Shown here piece after piece: positions 19,114 through 36,777 of a DNA stretch of 64,000 nucleotides (within the stretch, counting starts at the first letter, position 1; the number at the start of each line of letters is the position of its first letter). The position numbers and the translations under genes were made by a program. The DNA comes from a virus. The notes under the pieces were generated by a model. The model searched no databases. It saw nothing but the letters and a program-made list of their open reading frames with translations, and was not told the origin of the DNA. The stretch spans positions 37,863 to 101,862 of IMG/VR virus record IMGVR_UViG_3300020048_003367; one strand, given 5' to 3'.

Positions 19114-22047
19114 TTAAATTTTGCGACTGCTTTCTTCCATATAATCAGGATTTTTTGCCTGTTGTTGAATTTTGAGTTGCATATTATCAACTTTAGCAGT
19201 TAATTGTTTTAGCTTGCGATCATGGTCTTTGTCATTTTTCTCGCTGTGGCCCAAGCCACGCTGCACCCATTTTGCAAAGGCCATGTCCTCGTCGCCGCCA
19301 AATTCTGGATAATGTTGCTGTGCAAAGCGTCTAGCTTGAGTGAGTTCTGGATCAGTAGCCAGATCCACGCGGCTACTTTCATAGGTAGCGGCCCAGCCTT
19401 GATTTTCGTCAACTGGTTTGTCTGCTAGTGGGCCACCTGTTACCCAAGCATCGCAGGTTCTACGACTGGCACATTTGAACTTCAGGAACTTGCAGTAGCC
19501 CAAGTCGCCAGCATCAATTACGCCTTCGGCATCTTCGGGACTGCTACTGTCAATACCTTGTGCAATGCAGTCCAAGGTGTCTTGACGAATGTCAAATGCT
19601 GCACAGTTGCCGCACAAGCTGCTTTGTGCTTCTTCCATGCTGTCCAGATTCCACTCATCAACTTTTTTCATCCAGAACTTGGTGTTGGGCAAGTCTGGGT
19701 TGAGTGGGCCGTATCCGTATTCGTTGATGGCTTTTTGTCTGTTGTTGAGATTCAGTGTGATATCTTGTGTGGCAGGTGGACACTTCTTGGCAGCTTCTGT
19801 CATGCCTTCATCATACTTGGGCATTGGTCGTTGCCCAGGGCGGCCTTTAACTCCACGCTTCTCTGTGCTTGGTGGTTTTGTTGGAGGAACAATATCACCC
19901 TGATTTCTAAATGGCTGCGGAGCCTTCTTAGGATTGCGGATATGGATAGGAGCCAGTGGTACTACAAAAGGAGCGCCTTCCGCCACACCTTGTTGACCTT
20001 CATATATCAAACTATCTATACGTTTATATTTAATATTAAACGCATTCATTAATAATTCAACTTCTCGTAAACATTGATCTCTAGCACCGCCCACTAGGTA
20101 AGCACCGTTAAATCTTTTTAATTGTGCTACACTGGTCCAGTTTACTGACAGTGGTTCATCATTTAATTCTTCCATGGCTCCTTGAATCAAAGACTGCTGT
20201 GTCGTGCGTTTGTTGAATGGAGGAAACTGCAATTCTCTGCTGTCGTTTTTGTGTTGTTGATATAACTCACGTATGGTAGCAATAATAGTAGACGGTTCTA
20301 TGCCAGCATCCATCCAGCCACGGAAGTATCCATAGCCCTTGTCCACTATTTGAAAACGGCTCCAGTTAATAGGATTGGTGTCGGGGTCATTGTCATACCA
20401 GTCTGGATCAATGGTATCTTCCCAGTATGTTTGAATCGCAGCCACAGTATCACCGCTGAGTCCTTGGTCTTCTGCGTTGACAAACATCAGCACTGGGCCT
20501 GTTTGTTTATTAACAAAATTAATAATTTGCGGAAACACTGCTGACTCGTCGCCGTCATTCATTCCCGAATATTCGGGCTGAACATCCACTACTATGACTG
20601 GATGTGCTAGACCTTCATTCAACGAGCCTTCCGCCACACCTTTCTCTACGCTTTCTTTAAATTCGTCCTTTGGTGCAGACTTATTCAAATTGTCAATAAT
20701 AGATTTGTGTGCTTTTATAAATGAATCCTCTCTTCGAGTCTGAACTTCAGGATCTCTTTTTCTAGCTGACTCGATTGTACTAACAATAGCACGATAAGCA
20801 TCATTTACAAATTCTTTATTGTTGTTATTTTGAATATATTGATTTAATGTATCTTTGACTTGTGTATGTATTTCAGGATTAGAGTCTTTTGAAATTATGT
20901 ATAAAGTTAATGCTAAGTTTAGATTGGCATATTCGGGAGTAAAAATATCTTTCGCTCCAGAACGTTGCTGTTGAGCCTGTTGTTGTGGTTGCGATTGTTG
21001 TCGAGAACGTCCAGCTTTTGTATACTCATTGAGTTTTTGTAAAATTGCAGCCGTGTAAGCATCCATAAAAGTGTTTGCTGTGCTTATAGCAGTCTTTGCG
21101 CCTCCACGATCTGTAATAGACGGAGGCACTGCATCAGCGGCACGATAAGCCGAATCGGTAGCATAATCAATTACCTCTAATACATTATAGCCATTGGTGT
21201 CCATACAATACGCCAATACAGCTTTGTTTACATTCTGTGCAATGTAGTCCATTATTCTGCTTTGCTCTCCACCAAATTTAACTGTGAAAAACTTTCCGAT
21301 TGCAGTTTGTGCTTTTTGAACAGCAATACGGGCCGCAACGTCGAACTTAACCTCTTGAGCCTTAGCACCACCAGCTGCACCTGCTACTGCCGCTGCACCC
21401 ATGCCCTTTAAGAATCCTCTACGGTCTATTTCTGATAAGGAGCCTTCCGCCACACCTTGCTCACCACCAATAGCAGCGTCTAACAGTTTGACCACTGTAG
21501 CAGCTAACTTGGCGTTGCCTTGCGCTTTAGGGTACAAGCTCATCACAAGAGCTGTTTTGCGGCGGTCGTCTAGACTGGGCCATGCACTACGGATCTGTGT
21601 AGCTGACGTCATGCCTGGACCAAACTCCACTGTGGGCAAGTAGGCCATGTAAGCATGTTTTGCAAATGGTTCTAACTTTTTGGCACCCAGCAAAGGCTGC
21701 AAGTAGCTAGGTGAGCCGTCTTTTTTAACACCACCGGGTAGTGGTTGCGACTTGGCGTCTTTTTCTGAACGAACAAAGATCAAGGTGTCTTGTTCGGGAT
21801 TGTACTTGCTGGTAATTTCAGCAGCACGAAATGGTGAGCTTACTTGTACAAAGTGTCCAGCTTCTACACCGGCCAATTTGGCCAGCTTTTCTTTTACAGC
21901 AAACGGAAAAGGTCTTGAACTGGTATCATTGGTTGCAGCAACATACACCTCAGCGTTGGGGAAAGTTCTTTTTGCGCTTTGATAAAGGGCATGGTGCCCT
22001 GCGTGGTAGGGATGGAAACCGCCCGGCATGATTACAATTGTGGTCAT
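19114..22047 (-). CDS. modular polyprotein: HxGH nucleotidyltransferase, Tat-signal cassette, isochorismatase-like cassette, Cys-rich domain
   Basis: PGGFHPYHAGH; DRRGFLKG; VIVVDVQ...VGGARDQC; CGNC...C...C...C; three GVAEG repeats. Confidence 0.8.
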   Translation of the reverse strand: MTTIVIMPGGFHPYHAGHHALYQSAKRTFPNAEVYVAATNDTSSRPFPFAVKEKLAKLAGVEAGHFVQVSSPFRAAEITSKYNPEQDTLIFVRSEKDAKSQPLPGGVKKDGSPSYLQPLLGAKKLEPFAKHAYMAYLPTVEFGPGMTSATQIRSAWPSLDDRRKTALVMSLYPKAQGNAKLAATVVKLLDAAIGGEQGVAEGSLSEIDRRGFLKGMGAAAVAGAAGGAKAQEVKFDVAARIAVQKAQTAIGKFFTVKFGGEQSRIMDYIAQNVNKAVLAYCMDTNGYNVLEVIDYATDSAYRAADAVPPSITDRGGAKTAISTANTFMDAYTAAILQKLNEYTKAGRSRQQSQPQQQAQQQRSGAKDIFTPEYANLNLALTLYIISKDSNPEIHTQVKDTLNQYIQNNNNKEFVNDAYRAIVSTIESARKRDPEVQTRREDSFIKAHKSIIDNLNKSAPKDEFKESVEKGVAEGSLNEGLAHPVIVVDVQPEYSGMNDGDESAVFPQIINFVNKQTGPVLMFVNAEDQGLSGDTVAAIQTYWEDTIDPDWYDNDPDTNPINWSRFQIVDKGYGYFRGWMDAGIEPSTIIATIRELYQQHKNDSRELQFPPFNKRTTQQSLIQGAMEELNDEPLSVNWTSVAQLKRFNGAYLVGGARDQCLREVELLMNAFNIKYKRIDSLIYEGQQGVAEGAPFVVPLAPIHIRNPKKAPQPFRNQGDIVPPTKPPSTEKRGVKGRPGQRPMPKYDEGMTEAAKKCPPATQDITLNLNNRQKAINEYGYGPLNPDLPNTKFWMKKVDEWNLDSMEEAQSSLCGNCAAFDIRQDTLDCIAQGIDSSSPEDAEGVIDAGDLGYCKFLKFKCASRRTCDAWVTGGPLADKPVDENQGWAATYESSRVDLATDPELTQARRFAQQHYPEFGGDEDMAFAKWVQRGLGHSEKNDKDHDRKLKQLTAKVDNMQLKIQQQAKNPDYMEESSRKI
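19977..21457 (-). repeat. three copies of the 14-bp direct repeat CTTCCGCCACACCT
   Basis: exact copies at 19977, 20628 and 21444. Confidence 0.95.
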
Positions 22048-22063
22048 GCCAGTATTTAGCGAG

Positions 22064-22501
22064 TTATAATCGTTCTAGCAACCAGAGGTACATTGGTGTA
22101 CCAAAGCTAAAGATTAGGTCACCGTTGCAGCCCGCATGATCATGGAACTGATCTATCATGGGCTCTGCATATCCGTTGCTGTCATGATGATATTCAACAA
22201 TGCTGTTCATTAATGGATCTATACAGATACCATCAAGCGCAAAGTTATTCAATACCAGCAATACATCACTAACAATAGTTCCTTGTTGGTCGATCACAGT
22301 GTGTTCAGATTTTTTACCTGATATTGTTATTTTGATTTTATGTGTTTGTTCAATTTCGTCATCAAATGGGTGACTAAATGTCAATGGCTTAGTCACGTGA
22401 TCAACACGGAGTAAACACACATCTTGATACCATACACTAACTCCAAGGGAGCAAGAGTAATCAGTAGAAGCAATATCAAATGTTAGTAATGCCTGTGACA
22501 T
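22064..22501 (-). CDS. hypothetical protein
   Basis: 145 aa ORF in operon context. Confidence 0.6.
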   Translation of the reverse strand: MSQALLTFDIASTDYSCSLGVSVWYQDVCLLRVDHVTKPLTFSHPFDDEIEQTHKIKITISGKKSEHTVIDQQGTIVSDVLLVLNNFALDGICIDPLMNSIVEYHHDSNGYAEPMIDQFHDHAGCNGDLIFSFGTPMYLWLLERL

Positions 22502-22503
22502 GG

Positions 22504-22869
22504 TTAATATGTGACCGAAACAGTGTTGATTGTGCCAGTTGTAAATCCCTGGACTCTGGCACGCAGCCAGGTGAAATTGCCGGTAATCGTGGATGTGTAA
22601 TAAGTGGTAACGGTTGAGTTTAAATCTCCAAACACATCAACTTCAACCCAGTTGGCCGAATCAGGATCATCATCCAGTGTGGCTTCAATGTGTATTAAGC
22701 CTTCAACAGTGTTGAGATTAAACAACACAGTTTGAATACCAACTCGCCCGCGATAGTAAGCGGCGGCCTTGACAGGATAGCTGCTCCAGTCCAAACTGGA
22801 ACCATCATAGGTGCCTGATGGATCACCGTGAACCACATTGCTCAACAAGATTTCTGTATTAACAGTCAT
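22504..22869 (-). CDS. hypothetical, possible virion structural protein
   Basis: beta-rich 121 aa, ends GNFTWLRARV. Confidence 0.55.
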   Translation of the reverse strand: MTVNTEILLSNVVHGDPSGTYDGSSLDWSSYPVKAAAYYRGRVGIQTVLFNLNTVEGLIHIEATLDDDPDSANWVEVDVFGDLNSTVTTYYTSTITGNFTWLRARVQGFTTGTINTVSVTY

Positions 22870-23036
22870 TACGCTCTCACAACTTCTACCACAATGCCTT
22901 GACCCAGGAGCTCTTCGGCTACTGATTGCAGTGCTTCGCAGATTTCATTTGTAGCAAGATACTGTTCTCCAGTATCTTTTACCTTGACCAACTTGCTCAG
23001 TGTGATCACTACTGTTTCTTCGTGTATTTTTGCCAT
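22869..23036 (-). CDS. small hypothetical protein (55 aa; absent from ORF track)
   Basis: MAKIHEETVVITLSKLVK...VVEVVRA; TATAAATA upstream; stop overlaps the next ATG. Confidence 0.7.
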   Translation of the reverse strand: MAKIHEETVVITLSKLVKVKDTGEQYLATNEICEALQSVAEELLGQGIVVEVVRA

Positions 23037-23038
23037 AG

Positions 23039-23692
23039 TCAAGTATTTATACGCTGAACAATAGGCACAGTCTTTCTAAAAGGCCTGGGCATGATCAGAG
23101 CCAGCATGGTAGCATACACAGGATCGTCATAGTCTACATAGTAGTGATCCGGGAACCAGTGCTTGCCGGGCCAGGAGCCTTTCAAAAACTGCTTCATTCC
23201 CGGGCTAGGTTTTATAGCAGTGCCTTGTGCGTCAAAGAACTCTCGAAGAGCCGGAATCTTGTCTCCAGGAAATTGTTGTGCTTTGAAGTAGCTGCGTAGT
23301 TTATGCGTGGGCTCTAGTAACAGCACAGTGTCGCGTGGCCGATCAATCACAGCTTGCTTGATTCTTGCGTTACATACAAATGCACAGTCCGCAATCAAGT
23401 TGTCAGCCAGAGCGGGTGTGTTTGTGTAGATTGTGCCCCAGCTACCCGACACCATCAGTTTGAACGGTTCTGTGATACTGTTGATGTGGGCCAATGCAGT
23501 CTGTAGATTCGGCACAACATCGCCGGAATACCGAGCCTGGCTCGTCCAGCTCATTCTAATACTAATATAGTCGTTAAACTTTACGCTATCACGAATCCTG
23601 AGAGTATGTGCTTCTTTCAAAAAGAAACTAAACGCATACTCCCACTTGTCAAAGTACAGCCGATCGCGGCTTTCAGTTTTGAGTGTCAACAA
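23039..23692 (-). CDS. hypothetical protein
   Basis: long ORF downstream of clpA; start uncertain. Confidence 0.6.
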   Translation of the reverse strand: MLTLKTESRDRLYFDKWEYAFSFFLKEAHTLRIRDSVKFNDYISIRMSWTSQARYSGDVVPNLQTALAHINSITEPFKLMVSGSWGTIYTNTPALADNLIADCAFVCNARIKQAVIDRPRDTVLLLEPTHKLRSYFKAQQFPGDKIPALREFFDAQGTAIKPSPGMKQFLKGSWPGKHWFPDHYYVDYDDPVYATMLALIMPRPFRKTVPIVQRINT

Positions 23693-25937
23693 CGATGATC
23701 CCTTCTTGATTGACTCCGGGCTGCGCGGTGTGTTCCACAGCAAACACAGCAGCATCATTCTCGATATCCACTGTGACTACACAATTGTCAAGACGTTCAA
23801 ACAAGATCTTCTTTGACAGAGGTACACGGATAATCTCGTCAATTTTGCGACTCAAGGGGCGAGCACCCATTTTGCTGTCGTAACCTTTATCGGCCAAGTA
23901 GTCCACAACTGCTTCAGTAATGTTGAGTCGGATACCTTTGGGTGTCAAGCTGGTCTTGAGTTGATCTACGAATTTTACCACAATCTTCTTGATGGCCAGA
24001 GTATCTAGCTTACCAAACTTTACAATAGCATCAATACGATTTCGCAGCTCAGGACGGAAGAACTCTTTCAAAGCACGGTCATCTTCACCTGTTTTCTCTT
24101 GTGCTCCAAAGCCAATAGCATTGACTTCGCTATCACGTGCGCCCAGGTTAGATGTCATGATGATAATGGTGTTCTTGCATGACACTCTCTTGCCGTTGGC
24201 GCCGGTAATGTGTCCTTCATCCAGCATTTGCAGCAAGATGTTGGTGACATCGGGGTGTGCTTTTTCGATCTCGTCAAACAAGATCACAGCAAACGGATTC
24301 TTGCTGATGTCTGAAATCAGTTTGCCGCCGCCCAAGTTGCCATCTTCAAAGCCCACATAGCCCGGAGGTGCACCAATTAGACTTGATACAGTGTGTTTTT
24401 CTTGGAACTCACTCATATCATAGCGCAACATCTTCATTTCAAGATTGTCTGCTAGTGCCTTGGCCAGTTCAGTTTTGCCTGTACCAGTTGGGCCCAAGAA
24501 CAAGAAGCTGCTCATGGGCTTGGCTTCGTTGCCAATGCCTGCAAAACTGATGTACACACGTTCTAACACTGTGTCCACTGCTGAGTCTTGTCCATACAAG
24601 CGTTGCTTGACGTTGCTTTCCAGTTCCATGATCTTGACACTGCGTTCGTTTTGCAGTTTGTCCACAGGCACGCCTGCTACACGACTCAGTTGTTCTTCGA
24701 TCATGCTCTTGGTTATGGTTGTAAGACCTGCATCCTTGACACGTTCTCTAGCACATGCTGCATCAATAAGGTCAATACTCTTGTCCGGATTCTTGCGATC
24801 ATGGATGTATCGGTTTGCAAGTTCAACTGCGGCCAAGATAGCTTCGGTGTCAATTAGTACGTTATGAAACTGTTCAAGTCTAGGACTAAGACCAATGAGA
24901 ATTTGTTCAGTAGTGTTGGCATCTGGCTCGTCAATACTCAAGCGATAGAAGCGGCGCATAAGAGCCCGATCCTTTTCAAAGCTTTCGTAATACTCTTCCC
25001 AGGTAGTGCTTGCTACAACTTTCAAGTGGCCCTTGGTAATAGCCGGTTTTAGCATGTTGGCAAAGTCCAAGCTAGATTGTGACCCTGCTCCTGCACCTTT
25101 CATGGTATGCGCTTCATCCACAAACAAGATGCAGTTCTTTTTGCTTTCAAGAGCACCAATCACTTGTTTGAACTTTTCTTCAAACTCACCGCGGTACTTT
25201 GATCCAGCCAACAGCGAACCAATCTCCAGGCTCCAGACTTCGTGTCCCTTGATAAACTCAGGCACACGCCCGGCAATGATTTCCTGGGCCAGACCATCAA
25301 TAATAGCAGTCTTGCCCACACCAGGATCGCCTACCATGAGCACGTTGGCCTTGAAGCGGCGTGCTAGCACAGTGATCATTTCTTGCAGTTCTGTGGCACG
25401 ACCAATCATGGGCTCCAACTGACCTTTTTGTGCTTGAGCAGTGATGTTGGTGCAGTACTCGGTAAGAATCTCATCAGCTTGATTTGAAGTCATTCGAACT
25501 TCAGCAGCAGGCTGATAATTTTTGTGCCAGAACTCCACAAACTCTGACTTCTTCAAGCCATGCTTGAGCATGAAGTATTGTGCATGGCTATTGCTTTCAC
25601 TCATGATACTAAGAAATACATCAATCACGCTGAGTGTGCGACGACCTGTAAACATCACTTGCACGTTAGCGCGATTGAATACTCGTTCCAGTGCAGATGT
25701 TTTCTTTGGGCTGTCATTGCTGGCACGGGCCAGGCTCACCAGGCTCACTATATAAGCCATCAAGTCAATGTCTAATTGTTCTACATCCATACCATATTTG
25801 GCCAAGCATTTTCTAAAAGGCACATGCCGTACCATGGCCAAGGTCAAGTGCTCGGTTGTTACGTATTCGTGTCCAAGTTCACGTGCCAGTTGCACAGATT
25901 GATCAACGATGTTTTCGATTTCAGCTGAGGGATTCAT
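23673..25937 (-). CDS. clpA: ATP-dependent Clp protease ATPase subunit ClpA-like
   Basis: Clp-N domain, Walker A GDPGVGKT and GPTGTGKT, GYVG pore loop, IGF ClpP-docking loop, no ClpB middle domain. Confidence 0.92.
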   Translation of the reverse strand: MNPSAEIENIVDQSVQLARELGHEYVTTEHLTLAMVRHVPFRKCLAKYGMDVEQLDIDLMAYIVSLVSLARASNDSPKKTSALERVFNRANVQVMFTGRRTLSVIDVFLSIMSESNSHAQYFMLKHGLKKSEFVEFWHKNYQPAAEVRMTSNQADEILTEYCTNITAQAQKGQLEPMIGRATELQEMITVLARRFKANVLMVGDPGVGKTAIIDGLAQEIIAGRVPEFIKGHEVWSLEIGSLLAGSKYRGEFEEKFKQVIGALESKKNCILFVDEAHTMKGAGAGSQSSLDFANMLKPAITKGHLKVVASTTWEEYYESFEKDRALMRRFYRLSIDEPDANTTEQILIGLSPRLEQFHNVLIDTEAILAAVELANRYIHDRKNPDKSIDLIDAACARERVKDAGLTTITKSMIEEQLSRVAGVPVDKLQNERSVKIMELESNVKQRLYGQDSAVDTVLERVYISFAGIGNEAKPMSSFLFLGPTGTGKTELAKALADNLEMKMLRYDMSEFQEKHTVSSLIGAPPGYVGFEDGNLGGGKLISDISKNPFAVILFDEIEKAHPDVTNILLQMLDEGHITGANGKRVSCKNTIIIMTSNLGARDSEVNAIGFGAQEKTGEDDRALKEFFRPELRNRIDAIVKFGKLDTLAIKKIVVKFVDQLKTSLTPKGIRLNITEAVVDYLADKGYDSKMGARPLSRKIDEIIRVPLSKKILFERLDNCVVTVDIENDAAVFAVEHTAQPGVNQEGIIVVDTQN

Positions 25938-26000
25938 AGAGCTCCTTGATTAGATTGTTTATTATACAACATGTAGAATTGTTTCACAAGTGGTTTTGGT

Positions 26001-26780
26001 TTATCGATGTTGTTCGATTGCTGCTAGTATTTCGGGTGCAATAGTGGCAGGGACTTGTGCCTGCAAACGAATCATTACATCTCCACGCTGTCCTTGTGAA
26101 TTGCCCAAACCATGACCTCGTAGACGCATGACTGAGCCTGGTTGGGTGTGTGAGGGAATTCGGAAAACTACCCCAGTGCCAGTAATGGTTTTTATTTCAG
26201 TGTCAGCACCCAGAATCATGTCCCAGATTGATACAGCGTGATCAGTATGCAAGGTCAAACCTTCGCGGCGCCATTGTGCGTGTGGATGTATCTTGAACTG
26301 TACCATGAGGTCCATGCCATTGGGACCAACCCCACTATATTGCACATTGTCACCATCTTCGATTCCTGGGGGAATTTGAATCTGTACAGTGCTAGTGCCT
26401 GAGTCAGACTTAACTTGCATGGTTCTGCTGCCTGCTTGTGCAACTTCTTCTAGCGTGGTCCAAATTGTGGTTCTCACATGATTAGACCTGCGCTGCGACC
26501 CAAACGGACTTTGTCCCCCAAACATCTGTCCAAATACATCATGCATGTTGAAGTGTGCGCCTTGGCCACCAAATCCTGAAAACTGCGGAGCAGGATTGTC
26601 GTAAGCAGCACGTTTGGCAGCGTCTCCTAGTGTGTCGTAGGCAGCTTGGATAGCTTGAAACTTGGCAGTATCGCCTCCCTTGTCGGGGTGATGTTGACTG
26701 GCCAGTTTTCGGAAAGCCTTTTTGACTTCGTCCTGTGTGGCGCTTTTGGAAACACCTAGTGTTTGGTAGTGGTCTGTCAT
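26001..26780 (-). CDS. DnaJ/CbpA-type co-chaperone
   Basis: J-domain with HPDKGG, G/F region, C-terminal DnaJ domain without Zn finger. Confidence 0.92.
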
Positions 26781-27016
26781 GTGCATCCAAATTTCAATGT
26801 AAACATAATCGCAGGCTCTTCCCATTCAAATTGATATGTTACATAGCCTTGATCATACTCTTTAGTATCCAAATACCAACGCTGAAAATAGCTGTTGCCG
26901 GTTACAGGATATGATTCACACCATTCGTATGCACCTTCACATGCATCACGCCGCAGACGCACCTTGTGTATGAAGTCTGGGTTTGAACGGCCACCGCCGC
27001 TATAAAATCGTTCCAT
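26777..27016 (-). CDS. hypothetical protein
   Basis: 79 aa, ends MFTLKF, coupled to dnaJ. Confidence 0.6.
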
Positions 27017-27051
27017 AAAAAAAGTCCTGTACAGTTAATTATACAGGACTT
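27017..27051 (-). terminator. intrinsic terminator after the lysis operon
   Basis: 10-bp stem AAGTCCTGTA/TACAGGACTT followed by a T-run on the minus strand. Confidence 0.75.
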
Positions 27052-27066
27052 GGTGAGTCAAGTCAA
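27038..27066 (-). promoter_or_regulatory. sigma70 promoter overlapping the terminator
   Basis: TTGACT-N17-TATAAT. Confidence 0.75.
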
Positions 27067-27069
27067 ATG

Positions 27070-27291: not shown

Positions 27292-27300
27292 AGTGGTTCC

Positions 27301-28446: not shown

Positions 28447-28467
28447 GTGTTGGCTCCTTTATTTGTT

Positions 28468-29604
28468 TTAGCAGTTCCACTTGCGCAGGGCCAGGGCCTT
28501 GCGAGTTGGTTTGCCGTTGGGTTTTTTCATTGGTCCCTTGACGCCCGACATTCTTGCACAGAATGATTTGCGGCGCTTGGCTGCTTTTGATCCTGGCTTG
28601 AGTTTGCTTGGCTTGGTGGTCACGGCCATTTGTAATTTGCTGCCAGGATTCTCTCTGCGATAGCTAGCAACGCCTTTGGCATTTAGTCCACCCTTGGCGC
28701 TCTTGCCTGCTTTGCGGCGCCATGCGGCGGTTTCGAATAGTATTTGATCGTCTAGTCGTTCAAGTGTTTCCCATACTTGATCAACGCTGACTTGATCTTC
28801 TTGTGCCAGTTCTTCTGCTAGTGATTCCATGGCTTCAAACATCTCGTCAATTTCAGGATCTACTTCTTCTGAGTCTTCTTCACTCTCCATGTAATCCCAA
28901 ACAGCCACCAGCATTGACTTGGCCACTGCAATCTTTTCTTGACACCATTCGGGCAAGTTGTCACCGGTTTGAATTAGATCATCAATGCCTGCTACAGCAC
29001 GTTCCAATGTTTCAAGATTGTTGTCGGCCATGCCTGCTTCGTCATTGTATTCGGCGTTGTAGCCTTCCGACACGGATTCATCCCATTGTTTCTTTTCTGC
29101 GTAACGTTCCATGTCGTCTACTGCTTTTTGTCCGTAACGGTCTTTTACGTATTTTCTAATGTTTATCAAAATGTCGCCGCTTTTGTTTATCTGTCTGACA
29201 TCAGGATGGTTACCGCGTCCTGCCTGCAAATGTTTGCTGTATCTGTCCCAAACTTTCCTAAGACTGTGATCGTCGCCTTCCGCCACACCTTCTTTTTGAT
29301 AGTGATTTTTGAATAATGAATTACATTTTGGACAACGATCTTGTTCCGGAGTTGCAGCAAATGTTCTCAAACCAACACCAGTATCTCTACCAGGATGATC
29401 TGCTAAACCATGTTTAGGTGTTTTTAGATGAACTTTATCGCCGGAGCCTTCCGCCACACCTTGCTCTACTGATTCAGCAGGCACACAGTTGTTGACTCTG
29501 ACCCCGCCCTTGACCTTGGTCTTGGGGTTGCCAATCTTTTTGCCTGTCCAGCATTTGGGGTCCAAGCGAACTTTTTCTTCGGTTTTAATTTCGTTAAATT
29601 TCAT
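28468..29604 (-). CDS. modular putative internal head protein (CW..G..VNNCV module, GVAEG cassette, basic C-terminal domain)
   Basis: MKFNEIKTEE N-terminus; two GVAEG repeats; AAWRRKAGKSAKGGLNAKG...RRKSFCARM...ALRKWNC tail. Confidence 0.7.
   Translation of the reverse strand: MKFNEIKTEEKVRLDPKCWTGKKIGNPKTKVKGGVRVNNCVPAESVEQGVAEGSGDKVHLKTPKHGLADHPGRDTGVGLRTFAATPEQDRCPKCNSLFKNHYQKEGVAEGDDHSLRKVWDRYSKHLQAGRGNHPDVRQINKSGDILINIRKYVKDRYGQKAVDDMERYAEKKQWDESVSEGYNAEYNDEAGMADNNLETLERAVAGIDDLIQTGDNLPEWCQEKIAVAKSMLVAVWDYMESEEDSEEVDPEIDEMFEAMESLAEELAQEDQVSVDQVWETLERLDDQILFETAAWRRKAGKSAKGGLNAKGVASYRRENPGSKLQMAVTTKPSKLKPGSKAAKRRKSFCARMSGVKGPMKKPNGKPTRKALALRKWNC
29277..29461 (-). repeat. two copies of the 14-bp direct repeat CTTCCGCCACACCT
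   Basis: exact copies at 29277 and 29448, 171 bp apart. Confidence 0.95.
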
Positions 29605-29870
29605 TTGTTAACACTCTCGTGAATTTTCTTTTGCTGACCATACCAGTCTTGCCAGCCGTGAGTCTTTTCTGCACACTGATAGTACAGTGCATAGTTTTGT
29701 ATAACAACTTTTAGCATGTCTCGCATGCTGTTTTTACCATCATCAATTGTGAGTAAATCAGGGCAGCGCTCTAGCAGTGCAGCAGGAGCAACAGGGAATT
29801 CTTGGCGAACAGGCACAGGGGTTGAACATGCACTCAGCCACAACACCAGGCTCAACAAAACATATTTCAT
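29601..29870 (-). CDS. o-spanin (Rz1-like lipoprotein)
   Basis: lipobox LSAC, Pro-rich region, two further Cys. Confidence 0.8.
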   Translation of the reverse strand: MKYVLLSLVLWLSACSTPVPVRQEFPVAPAALLERCPDLLTIDDGKNSMRDMLKVVIQNYALYYQCAEKTHGWQDWYGQQKKIHESVNK

Positions 29871-30334
29871 TTGCGAGCCTTTCTTGCAGCCTCAATAGCT
29901 TGGTTCATTCGTGCAGCTTCGTTATGAACGTCTATAGCTTCTTGTGGCACAGGGCAAGCGGATTCTACTGGTACCATGACCTCAACACGCTGAATGATGG
30001 CGTCGCCTTTTTCACGGATCACTTGAGTCCGAGTCACAACTTTTTGTTGAATCACTGTGTTGACTTTTTCACTTTGTTCTTGTGCTGTTTTTAACTGAGC
30101 TTCAAGCTGCACCACACGTTCACGCCATTCGGCTTCCACAGCATAGCCGCCGCGAAAGTACACTCCCAGGGTCAACAGTGCAATGCCAATGACTTTGAAC
30201 GGCAACTGATATTGATACAGGAAAGGCAATCTGTGTATGAAAAATCCTGCCAAGGTCAGCACAAAGCCAACCAAGAGCAGGATATTGCAAAACCAAAGAA
30301 TCAAGCTGTTAGGAAGAAGTTGTAATAGCCACAT
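29867..30334 (-). CDS. i-spanin (Rz-like)
   Basis: N-terminal TM helices, coiled coil, C-terminal Cys; adjacent to o-spanin. Confidence 0.75.
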   Translation of the reverse strand: MWLLQLLPNSLILWFCNILLLVGFVLTLAGFFIHRLPFLYQYQLPFKVIGIALLTLGVYFRGGYAVEAEWRERVVQLEAQLKTAQEQSEKVNTVIQQKVVTRTQVIREKGDAIIQRVEVMVPVESACPVPQEAIDVHNEAARMNQAIEAARKARK

Positions 30335-30342
30335 GCAGATAT

Positions 30343-30546
30343 TTAGCTTCGGCCCCACCTAACTTGATTCCAAATTCGTTCATGCACAAAGTACAGCACT
30401 GTGTTAGCAACCAACTGAATCATTGCTATTGTGCTAGCCATGGCAAAATTACCAGCAATAAACCAAGCAATCAAGAATGTGGCCCCCGAGCCAGTGATTC
30501 TCCAGCTCAGGGTTTTGACAACACTGCGCCAGGTGGTGTCTTTCAT
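30343..30546 (-). CDS. DUF2061-type small membrane protein
   Basis: RSVVKTLSWR...YFVHERIW. Confidence 0.75.
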   Translation of the reverse strand: MKDTTWRSVVKTLSWRITGSGATFLIAWFIAGNFAMASTIAMIQLVANTVLYFVHERIWNQVRWGRS

Positions 30547-31340
30547 AGGCCCATTTTCTTGCGAATTTTAGTAGCACTTATTGCATGAGTGGCGTCATCA
30601 AACACTTCTTGGTCAATTTTGTAACCTACATCTCGCCCATAGGTTATGTTCACAATGTTAGGCACCACTTGTATTTCGTACTGCCCTTGGTACACAGGGT
30701 CCAGATCTCTGCGTATATAATTCTTTACCTGTTCAATTGCAAACGGATTCGACCCTTGCCAACCTTGACAATCACGGAGTTGAATTATTACTTGCCCTGT
30801 TTTAACAATAGCACGTTCAAAAAGCGCACGATGTCCCTCATGCCATGGTTGCCAGCGTCCTAGCATTTGTACTGTTTCTGCTTGCCAATCAAACACTGGT
30901 CTGCGACGATTGTCTAGTATGTGTGCTGCAACAAATTCTCCCCATTTTTCGCCGTGCTGTTCTGTGATTCTAAAGTCATACACTTCTGGTGGAACGAAGG
31001 CTTTGTTGGTATCTTCGAAGCGGCCTGCATCAATTGTGTCAACCCATACGGTCCAGTCTGCTTTGAAGTTGTTGCGCATTTCTACCAGTGGTGCAACAAA
31101 GTCACATATAACAAAGTCACATTCTGTCATGGCATCTGCTAGTTCACGCATGCGATGGCTTTGACGGATACGACCTTCTGTGCTAAAGTCCCAATCGTTG
31201 TATTTTTTACGTACATCGTCAGCATTCAGCCATCCTACACGTTTCTTTTCAGCTTGTAAATGGTCAACAATGTGTTGTGCCAAATAAGTTTTACCTGCGC
31301 CAGGCAAGCCCATTACCAATATTCTTTGTGGAGTTTTCAT
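30543..31340 (-). CDS. adenylylsulfate kinase-like P-loop domain fused to a cytidyltransferase-like domain
   Basis: GLPGAGKT, NADDVR, GRWQPWHEGH. Confidence 0.8.
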   Translation of the reverse strand: MKTPQRILVMGLPGAGKTYLAQHIVDHLQAEKKRVGWLNADDVRKKYNDWDFSTEGRIRQSHRMRELADAMTECDFVICDFVAPLVEMRNNFKADWTVWVDTIDAGRFEDTNKAFVPPEVYDFRITEQHGEKWGEFVAAHILDNRRRPVFDWQAETVQMLGRWQPWHEGHRALFERAIVKTGQVIIQLRDCQGWQGSNPFAIEQVKNYIRRDLDPVYQGQYEIQVVPNIVNITYGRDVGYKIDQEVFDDATHAISATKIRKKMGL

Positions 31341-31987
31341 AGTAAACTATTTAAGAACTCAGTCGTGGCTGATGTTTTAATTCCAGTAATTTGCAGTGTT
31401 ACTCTAGGAACATGCCCAGCATTAGCAGTAGCATGCGGTACATTGATCCAGTCAAAAGTACTAACGTCTCCAGCCCGCCAGCCTGCCCAGTTGTAGTTGC
31501 CATAACTCCAGAAATGCCCAGGTTGCCAGTCTGTAAGCTGCACAAAGTATCGCGCCACCCGACAGGGGTCTGCAGGCATCCATTTTTCCAGCTTGTCCAA
31601 GTGTAGGTTCCAAGTCTGCCCGGGACGCTGTACGTGAATTCGAGCCATGCTTTTGTCTAAAGCAAACTGATCAGCAATCTGCTGAAACACCGGTGCTAGG
31701 TTGTAGTTCAAGTCTGTGACTATGTGATCCTGTCCATAACCTTGCTGTTCTAGATCATAATCTTCTTGATCGTATTCTTCTGACGCACGTTTTAGTGGAT
31801 CGTTGTCTCGACCACGAGTGCGCCAAGTCACTGGTATTGCTGCTGCGATAGCAGTAGATAGTTCTGCATGCCAGCAGGGTTCAATGTGTCCCAGATGTTG
31901 CACAGTATCCCAACGTGTGTCCATTTTTGAATTATCAAAATGATATTGGCTGCGTTGTTTGGTTAGTTCCCAGTTGCTTTGTGTCAT
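31337..31987 (-). CDS. 2OG-Fe(II) dioxygenase-like protein
   Basis: HLD...PHATAN...R.TLQITG facial-triad pattern. Confidence 0.7.
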   Translation of the reverse strand: MTQSNWELTKQRSQYHFDNSKMDTRWDTVQHLGHIEPCWHAELSTAIAAAIPVTWRTRGRDNDPLKRASEEYDQEDYDLEQQGYGQDHIVTDLNYNLAPVFQQIADQFALDKSMARIHVQRPGQTWNLHLDKLEKWMPADPCRVARYFVQLTDWQPGHFWSYGNYNWAGWRAGDVSTFDWINVPHATANAGHVPRVTLQITGIKTSATTEFLNSLL

Positions 31988-32604
31988 ATTACAGTGATCT
32001 TTATGTCTGTGGCCATGTAGTCTTGGCGATATTCTGGCGGAGGATCTTGCAGCCCTAGCAATCTACTCAATTGCAAGTTTGTTTCTACCACAGTGCCGGG
32101 CCATTCGCGAGCACCGCGGCGATTGCCTTCATTTTCTCTACCGATGCACTGTGCCATCTGACGCAGATCTCGATAGTAGTCTCGGTACAAGGGGTACGAA
32201 ATATCAAACTCCCCGCACTTGACCCACCAACCCAGGCAAGCATCATCTGAACGATCTACTAGCACAATGGGGCAGTCCGGCCATGTTTGTTTTATATAGT
32301 CTAAATGATATCCAAACACATGACTTTTAATGATACGAACACCCGTGCCCGAAAATGGACGATCAAACTCAGCTTCATTTTCTTGTTTGCTGCGCTGATC
32401 TAGAGTTTCAAACCAATCCCCAAACTCCATGGCTGGTCCCCAGTAAACACCCATGTGCATCAGTTGCATTTCGCCTGCTGCGTCATGATAGTATTCTCTA
32501 GCAGGGCTAGCGTCTGAACTGTCGATACTGGCACTGTAATAAATGTTTTTAACAACACTGCTCCATTTAGATCCCGGAGCACCAGATACAAAGATATATT
32601 TCAT
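31984..32604 (-). CDS. P-loop/sulfotransferase-like hypothetical protein
   Basis: SGAPGSKWS and IIKSH motifs. Confidence 0.5.
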   Translation of the reverse strand: MKYIFVSGAPGSKWSSVVKNIYYSASIDSSDASPAREYYHDAAGEMQLMHMGVYWGPAMEFGDWFETLDQRSKQENEAEFDRPFSGTGVRIIKSHVFGYHLDYIKQTWPDCPIVLVDRSDDACLGWWVKCGEFDISYPLYRDYYRDLRQMAQCIGRENEGNRRGAREWPGTVVETNLQLSRLLGLQDPPPEYRQDYMATDIKITVI

Positions 32605-32609
32605 AATGA

Positions 32610-33569
32610 TTATTTGTTGGGTGAAATTCTACGAGCAATAGGTTGCCAGGTTTGTTGCAGTCGTGCCATGCTGGCTCTAACACCAGCTGGGGTGTGTTCT
32701 GCAGGAGTGATGTACATCATGTTTTCACGAAACTTGGCAGCAGCTTCAGCTGAACGAATTGCTGGCACAAATTGATCATGGTACCAAGTTTGAATTTCTT
32801 GTGGAGTTCCTGGTGGCAACGTCATGTTCCAGCAACCGTGAATGCTGAGCCCAGGTGCTGCCTTGCTCATTAGTGGCACATGTTCCAGTCCTGGCAAGGG
32901 TCTAGTATCAGCAATGCCAATAAACTTCAGTTTGCCTGCTTGCACATGCGGATAACCCACTGCCACAGGAGTTACACCAAATTCCACATGCCCGCCCATG
33001 ACATCTAGCAGTGCTTGTGCAGGTCCTTTGTACATGACCGTTTGCAACTGATCACCGTTGGGAACGTTGAGTTTGTCCACTAGATATTCTACAGCCAGCT
33101 TGTGTCCACCACCGCCAATCGCCACAGTGATCTTTTCACGTTTGCGAATTGCTGCCACAAACTCTTCAGGTGTGTTGATTTTGCTTTTGGGATGTGCCCA
33201 AAACGCTAGTGGACTGCGGGCAATGTTGGCAATGGGCTCCAGATCCATGGGATTGTACTTGATCATGTTGGAGTACCATATTTCAGGAGTTACCCAATTT
33301 GATTGGCAAGCAGGTACACTAATGGTGTGTCCATCTCGGGGCACAGTCACAAAGTGGTTGATAGCAATGTTGCCGTCAGCACCTGGACGATATTCAGGCA
33401 CAAATTTGGCACCAGTCTTTCGTTCCACAATGTCTGCTACGATCCGAAATGAGATTTCGTTGCCGGCGCCGGGACCATTGGGGAATATAACTGTGACTGG
33501 TTTTGTGGGTTGCCAAGCAAATGCTAATGCAGGCACCATGAGCAAAGTTAGTAGAAATTTTTTGATCAT
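32610..33569 (-). CDS. tripartite tricarboxylate transporter substrate-binding protein (Bug/TctC)
   Basis: signal peptide, WQPTKPV, PGADGNIA, YKGPAQALLDVMGGHV, PPGTP. Confidence 0.88.
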   Translation of the reverse strand: MIKKFLLTLLMVPALAFAWQPTKPVTVIFPNGPGAGNEISFRIVADIVERKTGAKFVPEYRPGADGNIAINHFVTVPRDGHTISVPACQSNWVTPEIWYSNMIKYNPMDLEPIANIARSPLAFWAHPKSKINTPEEFVAAIRKREKITVAIGGGGHKLAVEYLVDKLNVPNGDQLQTVMYKGPAQALLDVMGGHVEFGVTPVAVGYPHVQAGKLKFIGIADTRPLPGLEHVPLMSKAAPGLSIHGCWNMTLPPGTPQEIQTWYHDQFVPAIRSAEAAAKFRENMMYITPAEHTPAGVRASMARLQQTWQPIARRISPNK

Positions 33570-33624
33570 CTTGTAGACTCCTTAAATAGTATTTGAAAAT
33601 CTAACTTATATATCAAAATTTCTT

Positions 33625-34359
33625 ATGAACACCAAAATTTTTAACCTAATTACAAAAAATTTGCAAGAGGCATTTAATTTGCCCAAGTATGCAAATATTT
33701 TGATTGACGCAGATACCGTGGTCAATTCATTACCGTGGACCCCGGCACGTTACTCAAAGTTCAAGGATGCAGTAGAAGCAGAGCTTGCTTTGCCTTGCGA
33801 GTATCGCGGAACACTGAAAGAAATTGTTGCGGATCTAAGCGAGCGTTATACGCATCGTTTCTTTTCAGAGATTTGGCGTCCAAGAACAGGTGAGTATGAT
33901 CACTCAGGTTGGGCCTTGGTAGAAGAAGTCAACAAGCTGAACCCTGAACGGGTCTTGGATGTAGGCTGTGGATACCACCCATTCAAAGGACGTATCAACA
34001 ACATCACTGGCATTGATCCCTACAATGACGCTGCTGACTATGAAGTTGATATCTTGGACTACAAGGTAAAACCTCAAAGTCATGATGTTGTGATTGCCCT
34101 GGGCAGTATCAACTTCAACAGCAGAGATGAAATTGAACAGCGTTTTGCTCACTGTGTGGAATTGTTGAAACCTGGCGGCAAGTTCTTTTTGCGAGCCAAC
34201 CCAGGTATCTCACACAAGACAGGTCCGTATGTGGATATCTTTCCTTGGAGTTTTGAAGTTGTGAATGACTTTGCTGAAAAGTACAATCTGCGTTTGGACA
34301 CATTCAAAAAAGAACCTACCGAACTGGGTAGGTTGTATTTTGTGTATACTAGACTTTAA
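33625..34359 (+). CDS. class I SAM-dependent methyltransferase with small helical N-terminal domain
   Basis: VLDVGCG, GIDP, LKPGGK. Confidence 0.85.
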   Translation: MNTKIFNLITKNLQEAFNLPKYANILIDADTVVNSLPWTPARYSKFKDAVEAELALPCEYRGTLKEIVADLSERYTHRFFSEIWRPRTGEYDHSGWALVEEVNKLNPERVLDVGCGYHPFKGRINNITGIDPYNDAADYEVDILDYKVKPQSHDVVIALGSINFNSRDEIEQRFAHCVELLKPGGKFFLRANPGISHKTGPYVDIFPWSFEVVNDFAEKYNLRLDTFKKEPTELGRLYFVYTRL

Positions 34360-34715
34360 CGCCCAGCCACTGCTAGTGCAGCACCTTTGTTGAAACTGGG
34401 GCTGTACGGGCTAGTGCCTGAACTAAGGCTATTACGCTTGCTCCAGTCATATCCTGCTCTATGACCTGAGCAGTCCTTGGTACATTGTGATCCTAGAAAG
34501 CTGAGTTCTTTCAGTTGTTCACGTGTCCATTTGTCGGGGATCACACCGTGTTTGGCCACAAACTTGTCGTGTAGTTGTTTGCCAGTGATACCGTGATCGC
34601 GGGCAATGGTTTGCATCATGTGATCAATTGCGCTGTAACTTTTGGGATCATCAAGATCTTTTTCAAGCTTTTCCACAGCGCCTTCTTTCAAATATGCAAA
34701 CTCGCTGGCTCTCAC
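34356..34715 (-). CDS. putative internal head protein
   Basis: MRASEFAYLKE N-terminus; CTKDCSGHRAGY module after LKE. Confidence 0.65.
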   Translation of the reverse strand: MRASEFAYLKEGAVEKLEKDLDDPKSYSAIDHMMQTIARDHGITGKQLHDKFVAKHGVIPDKWTREQLKELSFLGSQCTKDCSGHRAGYDWSKRNSLSSGTSPYSPSFNKGAALAVAGR

Positions 34716-34819
34716 ACCGTTTCCTTTAGCTGACGACGATACTCTGCTAGTGCCGCTGTTAATGACTCTGCTTCAATGATATAGGTCTTGTCACCTGACT
34801 TGAATGTGTATGTTCTCAT
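34712..34819 (-). CDS. 35 aa hypothetical protein (absent from ORF track)
   Basis: MRTYTFKSGDKTYIIEAES...; overlaps both neighbours by 4 nt. Confidence 0.5.
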   Translation of the reverse strand: MRTYTFKSGDKTYIIEAESLTAALAEYRRQLKETV

Positions 34820-36777
34820 TTTTTAGGTTGTTGTGCTGTGGGTACGTTACGATACACACGCTTGTTGGGATCATATACTGTTTTCATGGGGCCAGCACCA
34901 GCCAATTGCTTGAGGCGGGCCATTGCTGCATCAAAACGATCAGCGTCCATGTTTCCAACTTTTTCGCCTTCGTCCAAGCCATCAGTTTGTGTAGCACCTT
35001 CGCCGTCGGCATCAAAAGCTACCATTTCTACTTTGGGCCACATACGTGCAGGCACATACAGAATACCCGAAGTTTCGTCATGATCGATCTGGTCGCCAAA
35101 GCGAGCCATTACTGCATTGTATGCCCGTTCACTGTTGACGCTAAAGCCCACGGTGTCAGTATCGTCGATACCGCTGTATCCGCCTTCCGCCACACCTTGA
35201 TCGTCTTTGTTCGCCACCTGGCCATAGCCGCGCTGTCTCATTTCACGGTCAATTACTTTATCAACAAATGCTCCCGCTGAATTTTTTCTTGGCTTTGATT
35301 GGTCTTTTCTTGATGCGACAAAATTTGCAAGGCGTTGTCCGTCCATGTTCTTAAATGCCGACACTGCGCCTGACGGCGTAACCATGTCAGGTGCAGCACC
35401 TACGCCCCAACCTTGTGAGGCACGCTTGATGCCTTTTACAACATCACCGAAGCCTTCCGCCACACCTTGCTTTGGTTTGTATTTCTCTGCTTGCTGTAGA
35501 TGATGTTCCTTGGCTCTGCCTTTAGAGATTTTAGCGGCAGATAAATGATGGTGATATAACTCATCTCTACTAGTCGGTACGCCTGGATGTTGATCCAAGC
35601 CTTCCGCCACACCTTTGATAGTATAGTCTGGACGACTGCGACCTGTTTCTTGATGTAGGTCTTTGAGTGCTTCTATGGCTTCTTCCCTACTGTCGATAAA
35701 ATCATATCCACGGTCTGCACGATAATGAAAGGCGCCCCAACTATTACCATCTTGGTAAATCTCACCAACTGGCTTGCCATTTTTTGACTTGATTACTTCT
35801 GCGTTGGGGTAGATAGTATCGTTCGAGCCTTCCGCCACACCTGTTAATTTTGGTCTTTTATTGCCCAATGGTGAATCGCCGCGGCGTTGGACAATTCTGT
35901 ATGTTCCCATGCCTGTGTCTTCAACATCGGCACCATACATAGTAGCAATTTGTCTAGCAATCTTTTTATCATTAATAGTCACTAACTGCGGACCAGAGCT
36001 GTCTCCGCTAGTGTTCATCAAGTCGTGTAGATAGTTATACTCGTCTTCGCCATACTTGCTAGGTCTGAAATCACCTCTCCGAACTCTGGTATGATATCCT
36101 TCTTTGTCTGTGTCTTCCGCCACACCTTGCTCATTCATGGCCTCCCAATCTTCGTGACTGATGTAGAAGTCACTGTCAGGATCGTAGTATTTGCCTTCTT
36201 GCTTGTCGTAGTACACAACTTTACCACTCTTGGTATGGAATGGACCTTCTAGTCCCGGGCGCTCTGTATAACGTTCTCGATCAATATCAGGAACAACTTG
36301 ATATCCTTCTGCTACAGACTTTTCCCGCATGGCAGCACGAACTTCTGCACGAGTCTTGCCGTACTTGCGCTTAAACTCTTCTTCACTCATGGTTTTGTCT
36401 CGAAGATCTTGACTCAACTCTTTGACTTTACCTTCGGTGACCTGTTGTTCGCCGGGGCCATACGCAGTGATCACGATGTTGCCCCGAAGTTCGGGCTGTT
36501 GTTTCAACAATTCCAACGCTGCTGCATTGGCTGCTGCTTTGCCAGCGAATGCATCACTGATATGTTCTTGTGAGTCTTTTTGCTTGAGCCAGAAACGTCC
36601 AGTCTCGGCATACTGCTGGCGAGAATTGTTGTCAGCACGAATTCGTGCATCAATTTCTTCACTGCCAGCAGGCTCACGTTCACGTTCCAGTCGCCCACGT
36701 TGAGTGGCGTCCATACTTTGTTGTTCTGGATCTGTGTGCCAGTTAGTGCCTTCGTTGAATAATTGATTGAGTCTCAT
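34816..36777 (-). CDS. modular putative internal head polyprotein with five GVAE repeats
   Basis: MRLNQLFNE N-terminus; short unrelated modules separated by GVAE(G/D). Confidence 0.75.
   Translation of the reverse strand: MRLNQLFNEGTNWHTDPEQQSMDATQRGRLEREREPAGSEEIDARIRADNNSRQQYAETGRFWLKQKDSQEHISDAFAGKAAANAAALELLKQQPELRGNIVITAYGPGEQQVTEGKVKELSQDLRDKTMSEEEFKRKYGKTRAEVRAAMREKSVAEGYQVVPDIDRERYTERPGLEGPFHTKSGKVVYYDKQEGKYYDPDSDFYISHEDWEAMNEQGVAEDTDKEGYHTRVRRGDFRPSKYGEDEYNYLHDLMNTSGDSSGPQLVTINDKKIARQIATMYGADVEDTGMGTYRIVQRRGDSPLGNKRPKLTGVAEGSNDTIYPNAEVIKSKNGKPVGEIYQDGNSWGAFHYRADRGYDFIDSREEAIEALKDLHQETGRSRPDYTIKGVAEGLDQHPGVPTSRDELYHHHLSAAKISKGRAKEHHLQQAEKYKPKQGVAEGFGDVVKGIKRASQGWGVGAAPDMVTPSGAVSAFKNMDGQRLANFVASRKDQSKPRKNSAGAFVDKVIDREMRQRGYGQVANKDDQGVAEGGYSGIDDTDTVGFSVNSERAYNAVMARFGDQIDHDETSGILYVPARMWPKVEMVAFDADGEGATQTDGLDEGEKVGNMDADRFDAAMARLKQLAGAGPMKTVYDPNKRVYRNVPTAQQPKK
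35184..36127 (-). repeat. five copies of the 14-bp direct repeat CTTCCGCCACACCT
   Basis: exact copies at 35184, 35454, 35601, 35829 and 36114. Confidence 0.95.

Follow-up and report, generated by a model that had tools for sequence, protein, structure and literature searches.

In a 64,000-nucleotide stretch of viral DNA (hereafter the window), the 3' 64 kb of the 101,862-bp IMG/VR record IMGVR_UViG_3300020048_003367 (G000, rated 25% complete), three minus-strand genes (P0001, P0002 and P0003) encode proteins composed of unrelated modules, and the modules are joined by a recurring 17-nt word, AAGGTGTGGCGGAAGGC, which encodes (Q/K/E)GVAE|G. The available data favor a model, which we consider probable, in which this word is the in-frame joint of cargo modules in T4-related jumbo phages, serving both as a point of DNA exchange and as a predicted cleavage site of the gp21 type. 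This model proposes that multi-module cargo proteins would be assembled from independent modules with the 17-mer as their standard in-frame joint, and that modules may be exchanged at the word by short-homology recombination or template switching, by way of the general recombination and replication machinery of the phage, with the linkers of co-infecting phages or of paralogous genes as possible partners. Entry of the polyprotein into the prohead would depend on a capsid-targeting peptide of the T4 type at its N-terminus. The linker, (Q/K/E)-G-V-A-E|G, fits the hydrophobic-x-Glu rule of T4 gp21-type prohead proteases, and the prohead protease could then cut after each Glu to yield separate modules, which may be delivered to the next host with the DNA, and at least one type of module may be exported by the twin-arginine (Tat) pathway of the host.

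A preliminary description of the window had reported ten copies of a shorter repeat in one orientation and one reading frame within the three genes, nine of them extending to a 16-mer, with unrelated spacers and with codons that nearby look-alike peptides do not share, and exact matching and a readout of the codons bear out each of these points. AGGTGTGGCGGAAG is present in 10 exact in-frame copies spread over the three minus-strand genes. The 14-mer CTTCCGCCACACCT has 10 exact matches in the window, all on the + strand, where 100 dinucleotide-preserving shuffles of the window give an expectation of 0, and the entire contig contains no copies beyond these ten. The 16-mer is exact in 9 of the 10, the copy at 36112 having one mismatch, and the conserved unit is the slightly longer 17-mer. 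Spacings between copies within genes are 651, 816, 171, 270, 147, 228 and 285, and neither the flanks nor the spacers of the ten copies are related to one another. All ten copies read GGT GTG GCG GAA in frame, whereas the look-alikes KSVAEG (36304-36321; TCT GTA GCA GAA GGA), QQVTEG (36430-36447; CAG GTC ACC GAA GGT) and ESVSEG (29062-29079; TCC GTG TCG GAA GGC) are encoded otherwise. Upstream of the window, a fourth open reading frame (ORF) of the contig (G000 ~6950-7988, minus strand) carries one in-frame near-copy of the core with at most 2 mismatches.

Unrelated modules number three to six per polypeptide in the window genes and up to 13 in relatives. P0001 runs from a nucleotidyltransferase through a linker, a Tat-signal module, a second linker, a 217-aa module, a third linker and a 60-aa module to a degenerate linker (GMTE) and a Cys-rich C-terminal domain; P0002 consists of a 52-aa leader module (MKFNEIKTEE) resembling a capsid-targeting sequence (CTS), a linker, a 57-aa module, a linker and a 269-aa module ending in DUF6321; and P0003 is made up of six modules of 221, 95, 76, 49, 90 and 122 aa (Table 1). 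Pfam recognized only CTP_transf_like, TAT_signal and DUF6321 in the three polyproteins, most modules being unannotated, and found no peptidase or conflict-related domain in P0001, P0002 or P0003. When 213 distinct linker-bearing ORFs were split at the word, 779 segments (median 108 aa) were obtained, which fall into 114 families and 439 singletons. The 76-aa module of P0003 (F0) illustrates their mobility. It occurs in 18 polyproteins, always at 76 aa and with unrelated neighbors on both sides, and nucleotide identity to the window copy is 82-98% inside the module and drops to ~25%, the random level, in the first 15-nt bin past each linker; L042, for example, is 98% identical within F0 and unrelated outside it. 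The codon before the downstream linker moves with F0 and the codon after it moves with the neighbor, which limits exchange to a 12-13-nt core. In a collection of 5.8 billion proteins, F0 was found in at least 178 clusters (136-1760 aa; 82-100% identity), always flanked by linkers, with 55 upstream and 45 downstream neighbor families in 91 combinations among 112 occurrences, and one protein has two different F0 alleles at non-adjacent positions. An AlphaFold 2 model of F0 (predicted local distance difference test score 78) has a core of a four-stranded sheet and a helix, with both linker ends predicted to be disordered, and gave no significant fold match in the PDB. The smallest F0-bearing genes (P0243-P0250) are mini-polyproteins of leader, linker, F0, linker and a 20-aa acidic tail; their 20-aa leader, MKTLR(E/D)(M/Y)(M/I)(D/N)L(V/I)E..., differs from the MRAxEF type and forms a second class of leader.

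Breakpoints in other modules and genes fall at the same place. Internal ends of blastn homology lie within 6 nt of a linker edge in 33-36% of cases as against 2.5% for random positions, and for homologous modules, comparison across the linker found a non-homologous neighbor 187 times out of 191 at 85-95% amino acid identity and 74 times out of 137 at 95% or more. Orthologs of P0001 hold none, one or several modules between the same end domains: in L009 and L013 nothing separates the nucleotidyltransferase from the Cys-rich C-terminal domain, a single Tat-signal module is inserted in L012 and several modules in L015, and the three inserts of the window gene extend from the first GVAE, which marks their exact start, to the degenerate GMTE|A. 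A homologous Tat module stands behind a different N-terminus, in another gene, in L033. Comparison thus shows that whole modules have been inserted, deleted and swapped between genes and phages, the homology stopping within the word or at its edge. The gain, loss and swapping of cassettes with breakpoints at the repeat that the preliminary description had anticipated are seen in the F0 hosts, the blastn ends and the P0001 orthologs, and F0 with its unrelated neighbors provides the expected case of one cassette in different host genes; the three patterns that had been named as speaking against shuffling, namely fixed cassette order, freely varying synonymous sites and breakpoints off the repeat, were looked for and not found. 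It is most improbable that the mosaics are chimeric metagenome contigs joined at the repeat. All of the data are metagenomic assemblies, but assemblers commonly work with k-mers longer than a 17-nt repeat, the same junctions turn up in contigs from independent samples (e.g., L009/L010/L011, L045/L048 and L055/L056/L097) and the frame is always kept, and assembly chimeras were rejected as an explanation.

As to how the modules move, short-homology recombination or template switching would be the most likely route, ahead of a dedicated site-specific recombinase. The PeSL motifs of T4-type phages, by which entire genes are moved (PMC2839356), and the in-frame motifs conserved in gp38 adhesins (PMC3157838) offer parallels to such a route. 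Phage_integrase (PF00589) had no match in the window's contig or in four related IMG/VR genomes (G000-G004; the four relatives measure 300-352 kb and are 81-100% complete, three of them 97-100%), whereas it was matched in 14 of 14 control genomes; Resolvase likewise had no match in G000-G004, its controls again being positive. A RecA/UvsX-like gene is present in each of G001-G004. The 17-mer contains no attC-like palindrome or inverted symmetry, its flanks are unrelated, and all copies are direct repeats on one strand. The earlier remark that the window holds no recognizable recombinase thus extends to the whole contig and to the three most complete relatives, in which neither a tyrosine nor a serine recombinase was found. 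The integron-style shuffling proposed alongside it does not hold up, as the analogy fails for want of a recombinase and of attC-like symmetry and because all copies are direct. A dedicated sequence-specific system, in which a nuclease, annealing protein or recombinase of unrecognized type acts on the 17-mer, possibly through circular intermediates, is rather unlikely. Such a system would account for a word whose conservation exceeds what codon usage explains and, at its 5' end, does not follow the codon register, for an exchange interval that at 12-17 nt is short for general homologous recombination, and for shuffling that is extremely fast relative to sequence divergence, and a precedent may be found in the mini-circles that T4-type phages form by recombination between repeated PeSL motifs (PMC2839356). 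However, beyond the missing tyrosine and serine recombinases, no recombinase or nuclease family was found among the scanned neighbor genes, the word has no internal symmetry, and there are only 4-10 copies per genome, restricted to few genes. There is likewise little likelihood that the 17-mer is the substrate of a dedicated mechanism or of self-mobilizing module circles, which would amount to an “intragenic integron” dual-coded as a protease site.

Conservation of the word is seen at the nucleotide level. At 115 distinct GVAE sites, from contigs gathered by protein similarity to P0001 and P0003 and with the same ORFs as codon background, GGT is used at 97% (background 44%), GTG at 83% (23%), GCG at 87% (11%) and GAA at 86% (80%), and 67% of the sites carry the canonical 12-mer, a form that codon usage would produce at ~0.9%, which upholds the earlier claim of conservation at the DNA level. 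At 109 of the 115 sites GVAE is preceded by CAA, AAA or GAA, the only NAA codons that are not stops. The residues they specify differ chemically, and the constraint therefore lies on the bases “AA,” out of codon register. Linker variants are mostly single G/A transitions from the canonical word, GTA and GCA being the commonest, and the AAGGTG half is its best conserved part. The variants look like decay from one copied sequence, not convergence on a peptide.

The strongest point for a protease site and for the cargo role comes from module 3 of P0001. In relatives this module is mostly a free-standing gene of 204-225 aa with a CTS-like start, M(R/K)AxEF(I/L)xE|G; 85 of 106 short matches begin in this way (e.g., MKAKEFITE|G and MRANEFLNE|G), and the CTS-like peptide directly precedes the mature start G-x-x-HPVIVVDV, which lies at the same place in free-standing and fused forms. 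Module 3 and the free-standing gene of L309 are 88.7% identical over 612 nt, the homology beginning at AAT GAA GGT, the end of the targeting peptide, and stopping at the last Tyr codon. There, “ACA TGA” in L309 overlaps the ATG from which the following CTS gene (MRAQEF...) starts, and the window has GAA GGT CAA CAA GGT GTG GCG GAA GGC, so that the linker stands in for “stop + start + targeting peptide.” The polyprotein would on this comparison be a fused alternative to a row of genes like those of T4 internal proteins, each with its own targeting peptide. In T4, gp21 cleaves after Glu in L/I-X-E, and the CTS is the first 10 residues, MKTYQEFIAE (PMC9026906, PMC8442874). Many polyprotein N-termini follow M-(R/K/N)-x-x-(E/D/Q)-(F/I/L)-(F/I/L)-x-E (e.g., MRAQEFITE, MKINEIISE and, in P0003, MRLNQLFNE|G), and those of P0002 (MKFNEIKTEE) and P0003 resemble MKTYQEFIAE. 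A crude CTS-like pattern, which registers resemblance only, was found in 47 of 128 polyprotein ORFs (37%) as against 155 of 1233 other ORFs (13%). A gene of Peptidase_S77, the T4 gp21 family, is present in G002, G003 and G004, and in G002 it lies between the portal gene and the scaffold and capsid genes.

The twin-arginine motifs provide a second line of evidence. All six distinct motifs found in the polyproteins are internal, 206-609 residues in, and each begins 3-7 residues past VAE, MAE, LDE or IEE. The window module at 20629-21444, taken alone, scores 24.0 bits against Pfam TAT_signal (cut-off 22.7; residues 5-25), and homologous Tat modules stand behind other junctions in L012, L015, L033, L113 and L164. 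A Tat signal functions only at an N-terminus, and a cut after the Glu is therefore implied. The non-canonical sites that precede Tat modules fit a protease rule better than a nucleic-acid signal, the alternatives to V-A-E at junctions being LDE, IEE, VTE and MTE, and the signal itself suggests that the module may be destined for the host periplasm. No systematic pattern of hydrophobic signal or transmembrane segments emerged when the sequences after linkers were scanned for them. The protease cut after Glu put forward in the preliminary description thus gains good indirect support from the Tat positions, the CTS-like starts and the gp21-type gene of relatives, while cleavage itself stays a prediction. 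Its term “virion polyprotein” went further than these data, as the window region contains auxiliary and not structural genes and P0001 has no targeting-like N-terminus.

Several observations weigh against the model. The exchange core, at only 12-17 nt, is short for recombination of the RecA/UvsX type, and a dedicated exchange activity thus keeps some standing. In syntenic pairs that span a linker (n = 20; the syntenic-pair tests are few, with n = 17-20), third positions differ by 22.5% in linkers and by 12.3% in flanks, so there is no sign of extra purifying selection in vertical descent. Older junctions, shared by diverged ORFs, are as canonical as moved ones (47% vs. 40% exact), and clustering of the same variant within one ORF is not significant (p = 0.10). 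On the protein side, Peptidase_S77 was not found in the window's 25%-complete contig, which likewise shows no head genes, or in G001. P0001 starts directly with an enzyme domain; the linker has Val at P3, where L/I would be expected from the T4 rule; and a Tat-exported module inside a capsid would follow an odd route. Cleavage could instead take place in the cytoplasm, through a different protease (the adjacent Lon-like one, for example), and this would be easier to reconcile with the Tat module. Cleavage, like packaging and injection, is a predicted step.

Synonymous sites of the linker are thus conserved across relatives, as had been claimed, but in the few syntenic pairs they change at least as fast as their flanks, and among F0 copies they are only somewhat less diverse than the module interior. 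One way to accommodate both would be that linkers decay like any silent site and that most modules in the pool have moved recently, which they could do only with intact words (“compatible ends,” frequency-dependent). Another would be an RNA- or DNA-level function behind the silent-site conservation. Its fuller version, in which a ribosome pause, a weak two-tetrad G-quadruplex or an RNA processing site keeps the silent sites and swapping is a by-product of repetition, seems unlikely. A pause is suggested by the Shine-Dalgarno-like AGGUG and by the strong preference for the rare codons GTG and GCG, and a quadruplex by GG-N3-GG-N1-GG-N2-GG; the better conservation of the AAGGTG half and the constant position of the word on the coding strand also agree with such a function, as does the failure of the recombination model's prediction that young junctions should be canonical. 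However, linker silent sites are no more constrained than flanks in syntenic pairs, the commonest variants, GTA and GCA, break the G-runs, the absence of a start codon after the Shine-Dalgarno-like core makes internal initiation unlikely, and the non-canonical junctions LDE, IEE and VTE occupy the same positions. Internal translation initiation at the in-frame GTG was considered separately and rejected, as AGGTG leaves no spacing to that GTG and no further start codon follows.

It is also unlikely that the linker is a mere flexible spacer in proteins that remain uncleaved and act intact in the infected cell, and not as capsid cargo. The non-structural auxiliary genes of the window region and the lack of a targeting-like N-terminus in P0001 agree with such a role, and some polyvalent proteins are delivered unprocessed (PMC5512222). 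Yet an internal Tat signal requires N-terminal exposure and always follows an x-x-E site, the free-standing module-3 gene has a targeting peptide with the same x-x-E|G at its end, just ahead of an unchanged mature start, and a gp21-type protease is present in relatives.

The phages concerned can be placed through the window's DNA polymerase (301-2970), which is 63-82% identical to those of G001-G004 (63-79% for G002, G003 and G004) and at most 51% identical to those of cultured phages, the closest being Sinorhizobium phage Phosso and Agrobacterium phage Atu_ph07, followed by Rak2-like jumbo phages. These identities define a clade of uncultured T4-related jumbo phages. In Phosso and Atu_ph07 the word does not exceed chance level, and cultured phages contained no similar DNA and gave one weak match only in a protein search. 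Near-complete relatives of the window have 4-5 exact 12-nt cores each, on one strand and all within ~7.7-32 kb, and the exact 17-mer occurs in more than 120 IMG/VR stretches among the matches listed. In bacterial genomes (596 Gb) the 17-mer was found in at least 120 copies, always single, which is close to the ~70 estimated for chance. Of 120 bacterial copies, 88 share the phase of the longest ORF, and in phage loci the in-phase count is 350:3; the latter count is only moderately informative because the bacterial copies are also mostly in phase, an excess that arises because all five codons start with G. The phage-specific feature is thus the arrays of the word and their context. Three contigs binned as bacterial metagenome-assembled genomes (L262, L288 and L304) carry 3-5 in-frame linkers at ~40-52% GC and are probably mis-binned phage fragments. 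One word-bearing contig from a bacterial bin has the sample name of a lake time series and an IMG number adjacent to those of several viral contigs, which suggests a freshwater origin.

Components of this kind are known individually, among them T4 internal proteins with a CTS and gp21 processing, polyvalent proteins and motif-mediated shuffling. The T4 internal proteins (IPI, IPII, IPIII and Alt; PMC9026906, PMC8442874) resemble the present system in a short N-terminal peptide of the MKTYQEFIAE type ending in hydrophobic-x-Glu, a gp21-family protease (here in related genomes) and cargo that is diverse, fast-evolving and non-essential-looking, and their layout is matched exactly by the free-standing relatives of module 3. 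In contrast, many cargo modules are fused here in one frame with internal linkers resembling cut sites between them, the linker is fixed at the DNA level and is an exchange point, and packaging and cleavage are predicted. Polyvalent proteins of phages and conjugative elements combine 2-15 unrelated domains in one long phage protein, and delivery with the DNA and proteolytic processing have been proposed for them (Iyer, Burroughs, Anand, de Souza, Aravind, 2017; PMC5512222). They resemble the three window genes in being multi-domain single polypeptides, and a 1548-aa example adjoins these genes. Their processing, however, is attributed to embedded peptidase domains, which the three window genes do not have, and the text of that report contains neither “linker” nor “shuffl” and describes no standard linker or DNA-repeat shuffling (PMC5512222). 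In the PeSL cassettes of T4-type phages, a repeated DNA motif flanks non-essential cassettes, and recombination between copies leads to their gain, loss or replacement (Arbiol et al., 2010; PMC2839356). The conserved motif at the breakpoints is common to both systems; PeSL, however, is an intergenic promoter and stem-loop that moves whole genes, whereas a 17-nt coding word free of any stem-loop moves modules in frame here. In T-even gp38 adhesins, short in-frame glycine-rich motifs separate variable segments that are exchanged between phages (PMC3157838). Conserved in-frame motifs thus mark exchange points in both, but those of gp38 form the structural core of one domain, and the present linkers are predicted to be disordered joints of independent, unrelated domains and are putative protease sites. 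Integrons and shufflons likewise have cassette arrays delimited by a repeated site; they differ in that no integrase or invertase was found here (G000-G004), there is no attC-like palindrome, and the copies are direct and in frame. Integron cassettes, moreover, are genes, and the cassettes here are protein domains.

No published description of the GVAEG linker system was found in the literature searched, nor was the combination that characterizes it described there: in hundreds of contigs, a single codon-locked 17-nt word marks where modules are exchanged in frame and where a protease putatively cuts. If the model is correct, it would represent a natural “plug-and-play” standard for multi-effector cargo, in which one sequence serves both DNA homology and release by protease, and it could explain the large and rapidly turning pool of small orphan proteins in giant phages, likely host-takeover or anti-defense factors. 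It would further provide a simple rule for module boundaries and mature ends in thousands of unannotated metagenomic proteins, and a design principle for loading several proteins into T4-type capsids by a single targeting peptide. The internal Tat signals raise the further idea that some of the modules delivered or made by the phage may be exported again, to the periplasm of the host.

Table 1. The three polyprotein genes of the window with their linkers and principal modules
Feature	Coordinates	Strand	Description
Polyprotein gene P0001	19114..22047	-	977 aa
P0001 linker 1	21442..21458	-	exact 17-mer (QGVAE|G)
P0001 module 2 (272 aa)	20629..21444	-	starts GSLSEIDRRGFLKGMGAAAVAGAAGGAKA, a twin-arginine signal to be exposed by the predicted cut after GVAE
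P0001 linker 2	20626..20642	-	exact 17-mer (KGVAE|G)
P0001 module 3 (217 aa)	19978..20628	-	mostly free-standing gene in relatives
P0001 linker 3	19975..19991	-	exact 17-mer (QGVAE|G)
P0001 degenerate linker EGMTE|A	19792..19809	-	6 mismatches to 17-mer; homology to short orthologs resumes here
Polyprotein gene P0002	28468..29604	-	378 aa
P0002 linker 1	29446..29462	-	exact 17-mer
P0002 linker 2	29275..29291	-	exact 17-mer (EGVAE|G)
Polyprotein gene P0003	34816..36777	-	653 aa, CTS-like N-terminus MRLNQLFNE|G
P0003 linker 1	36112..36128	-	QGVAE|D, 1 mismatch
P0003 linker 2	35827..35843	-	TGVAE|G, 1 mismatch
P0003 mobile module F0 (76 aa, aa 317-392)	35602..35829	-	shared by many polyproteins
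P0003 linker 3	35599..35615	-	exact 17-mer
P0003 linker 4	35452..35468	-	exact 17-mer
P0003 linker 5	35182..35198	-	exact 17-mer

The region around the three genes contains auxiliary genes, which encode a Lon-like protease, DnaJ, kinases, a TctC-like protein and a methyltransferase. Both the Lon-like ATP-dependent protease (23673-25937, minus strand; phrog_4871, E 5e-241) and a full DnaJ with J domain and C-terminal domain (26001-26825, minus strand) are encoded between polyprotein genes, and it is possible that they act as alternative processing or folding helpers. The 1548-aa polyvalent protein (13495-18141, minus strand) has a CTS-like start, MNFNELSTYNL, and no canonical 17-mer; its PHROG matches are phrog_36119, phrog_6387 and an amidoligase family, and its ATG is preceded at 13 nt by a TAAATAC box. 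Single-module genes at 12471-13495, 34356-34715 and 3478-4272 (minus strand) also have CTS-like starts (MRAQEF..., MRAEEFVGE, (V/M)RASEFAYLKE and MIVNELFGF), and from their sequences they look like unfused cargo genes of the same system. TAAATA boxes resembling the core of T4 late promoters lie 11-13 nt before the ATGs of P0001 and the 1548-aa gene (22048-22070 and 18142-18160, minus strand), and TAAATA occurs 21 times on the minus, mostly coding, strand as against 6 times on the plus strand; P0002 and P0003 have no such box and look co-transcribed with upstream genes. A periplasmic solute-binding protein of the TctC/Bug family is encoded at 32610-33569 (minus strand) with its own signal peptide, MIKKFLLTLLMVPALAFA. 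The family is abundant in Betaproteobacteria, and the gene may therefore hint at the host.

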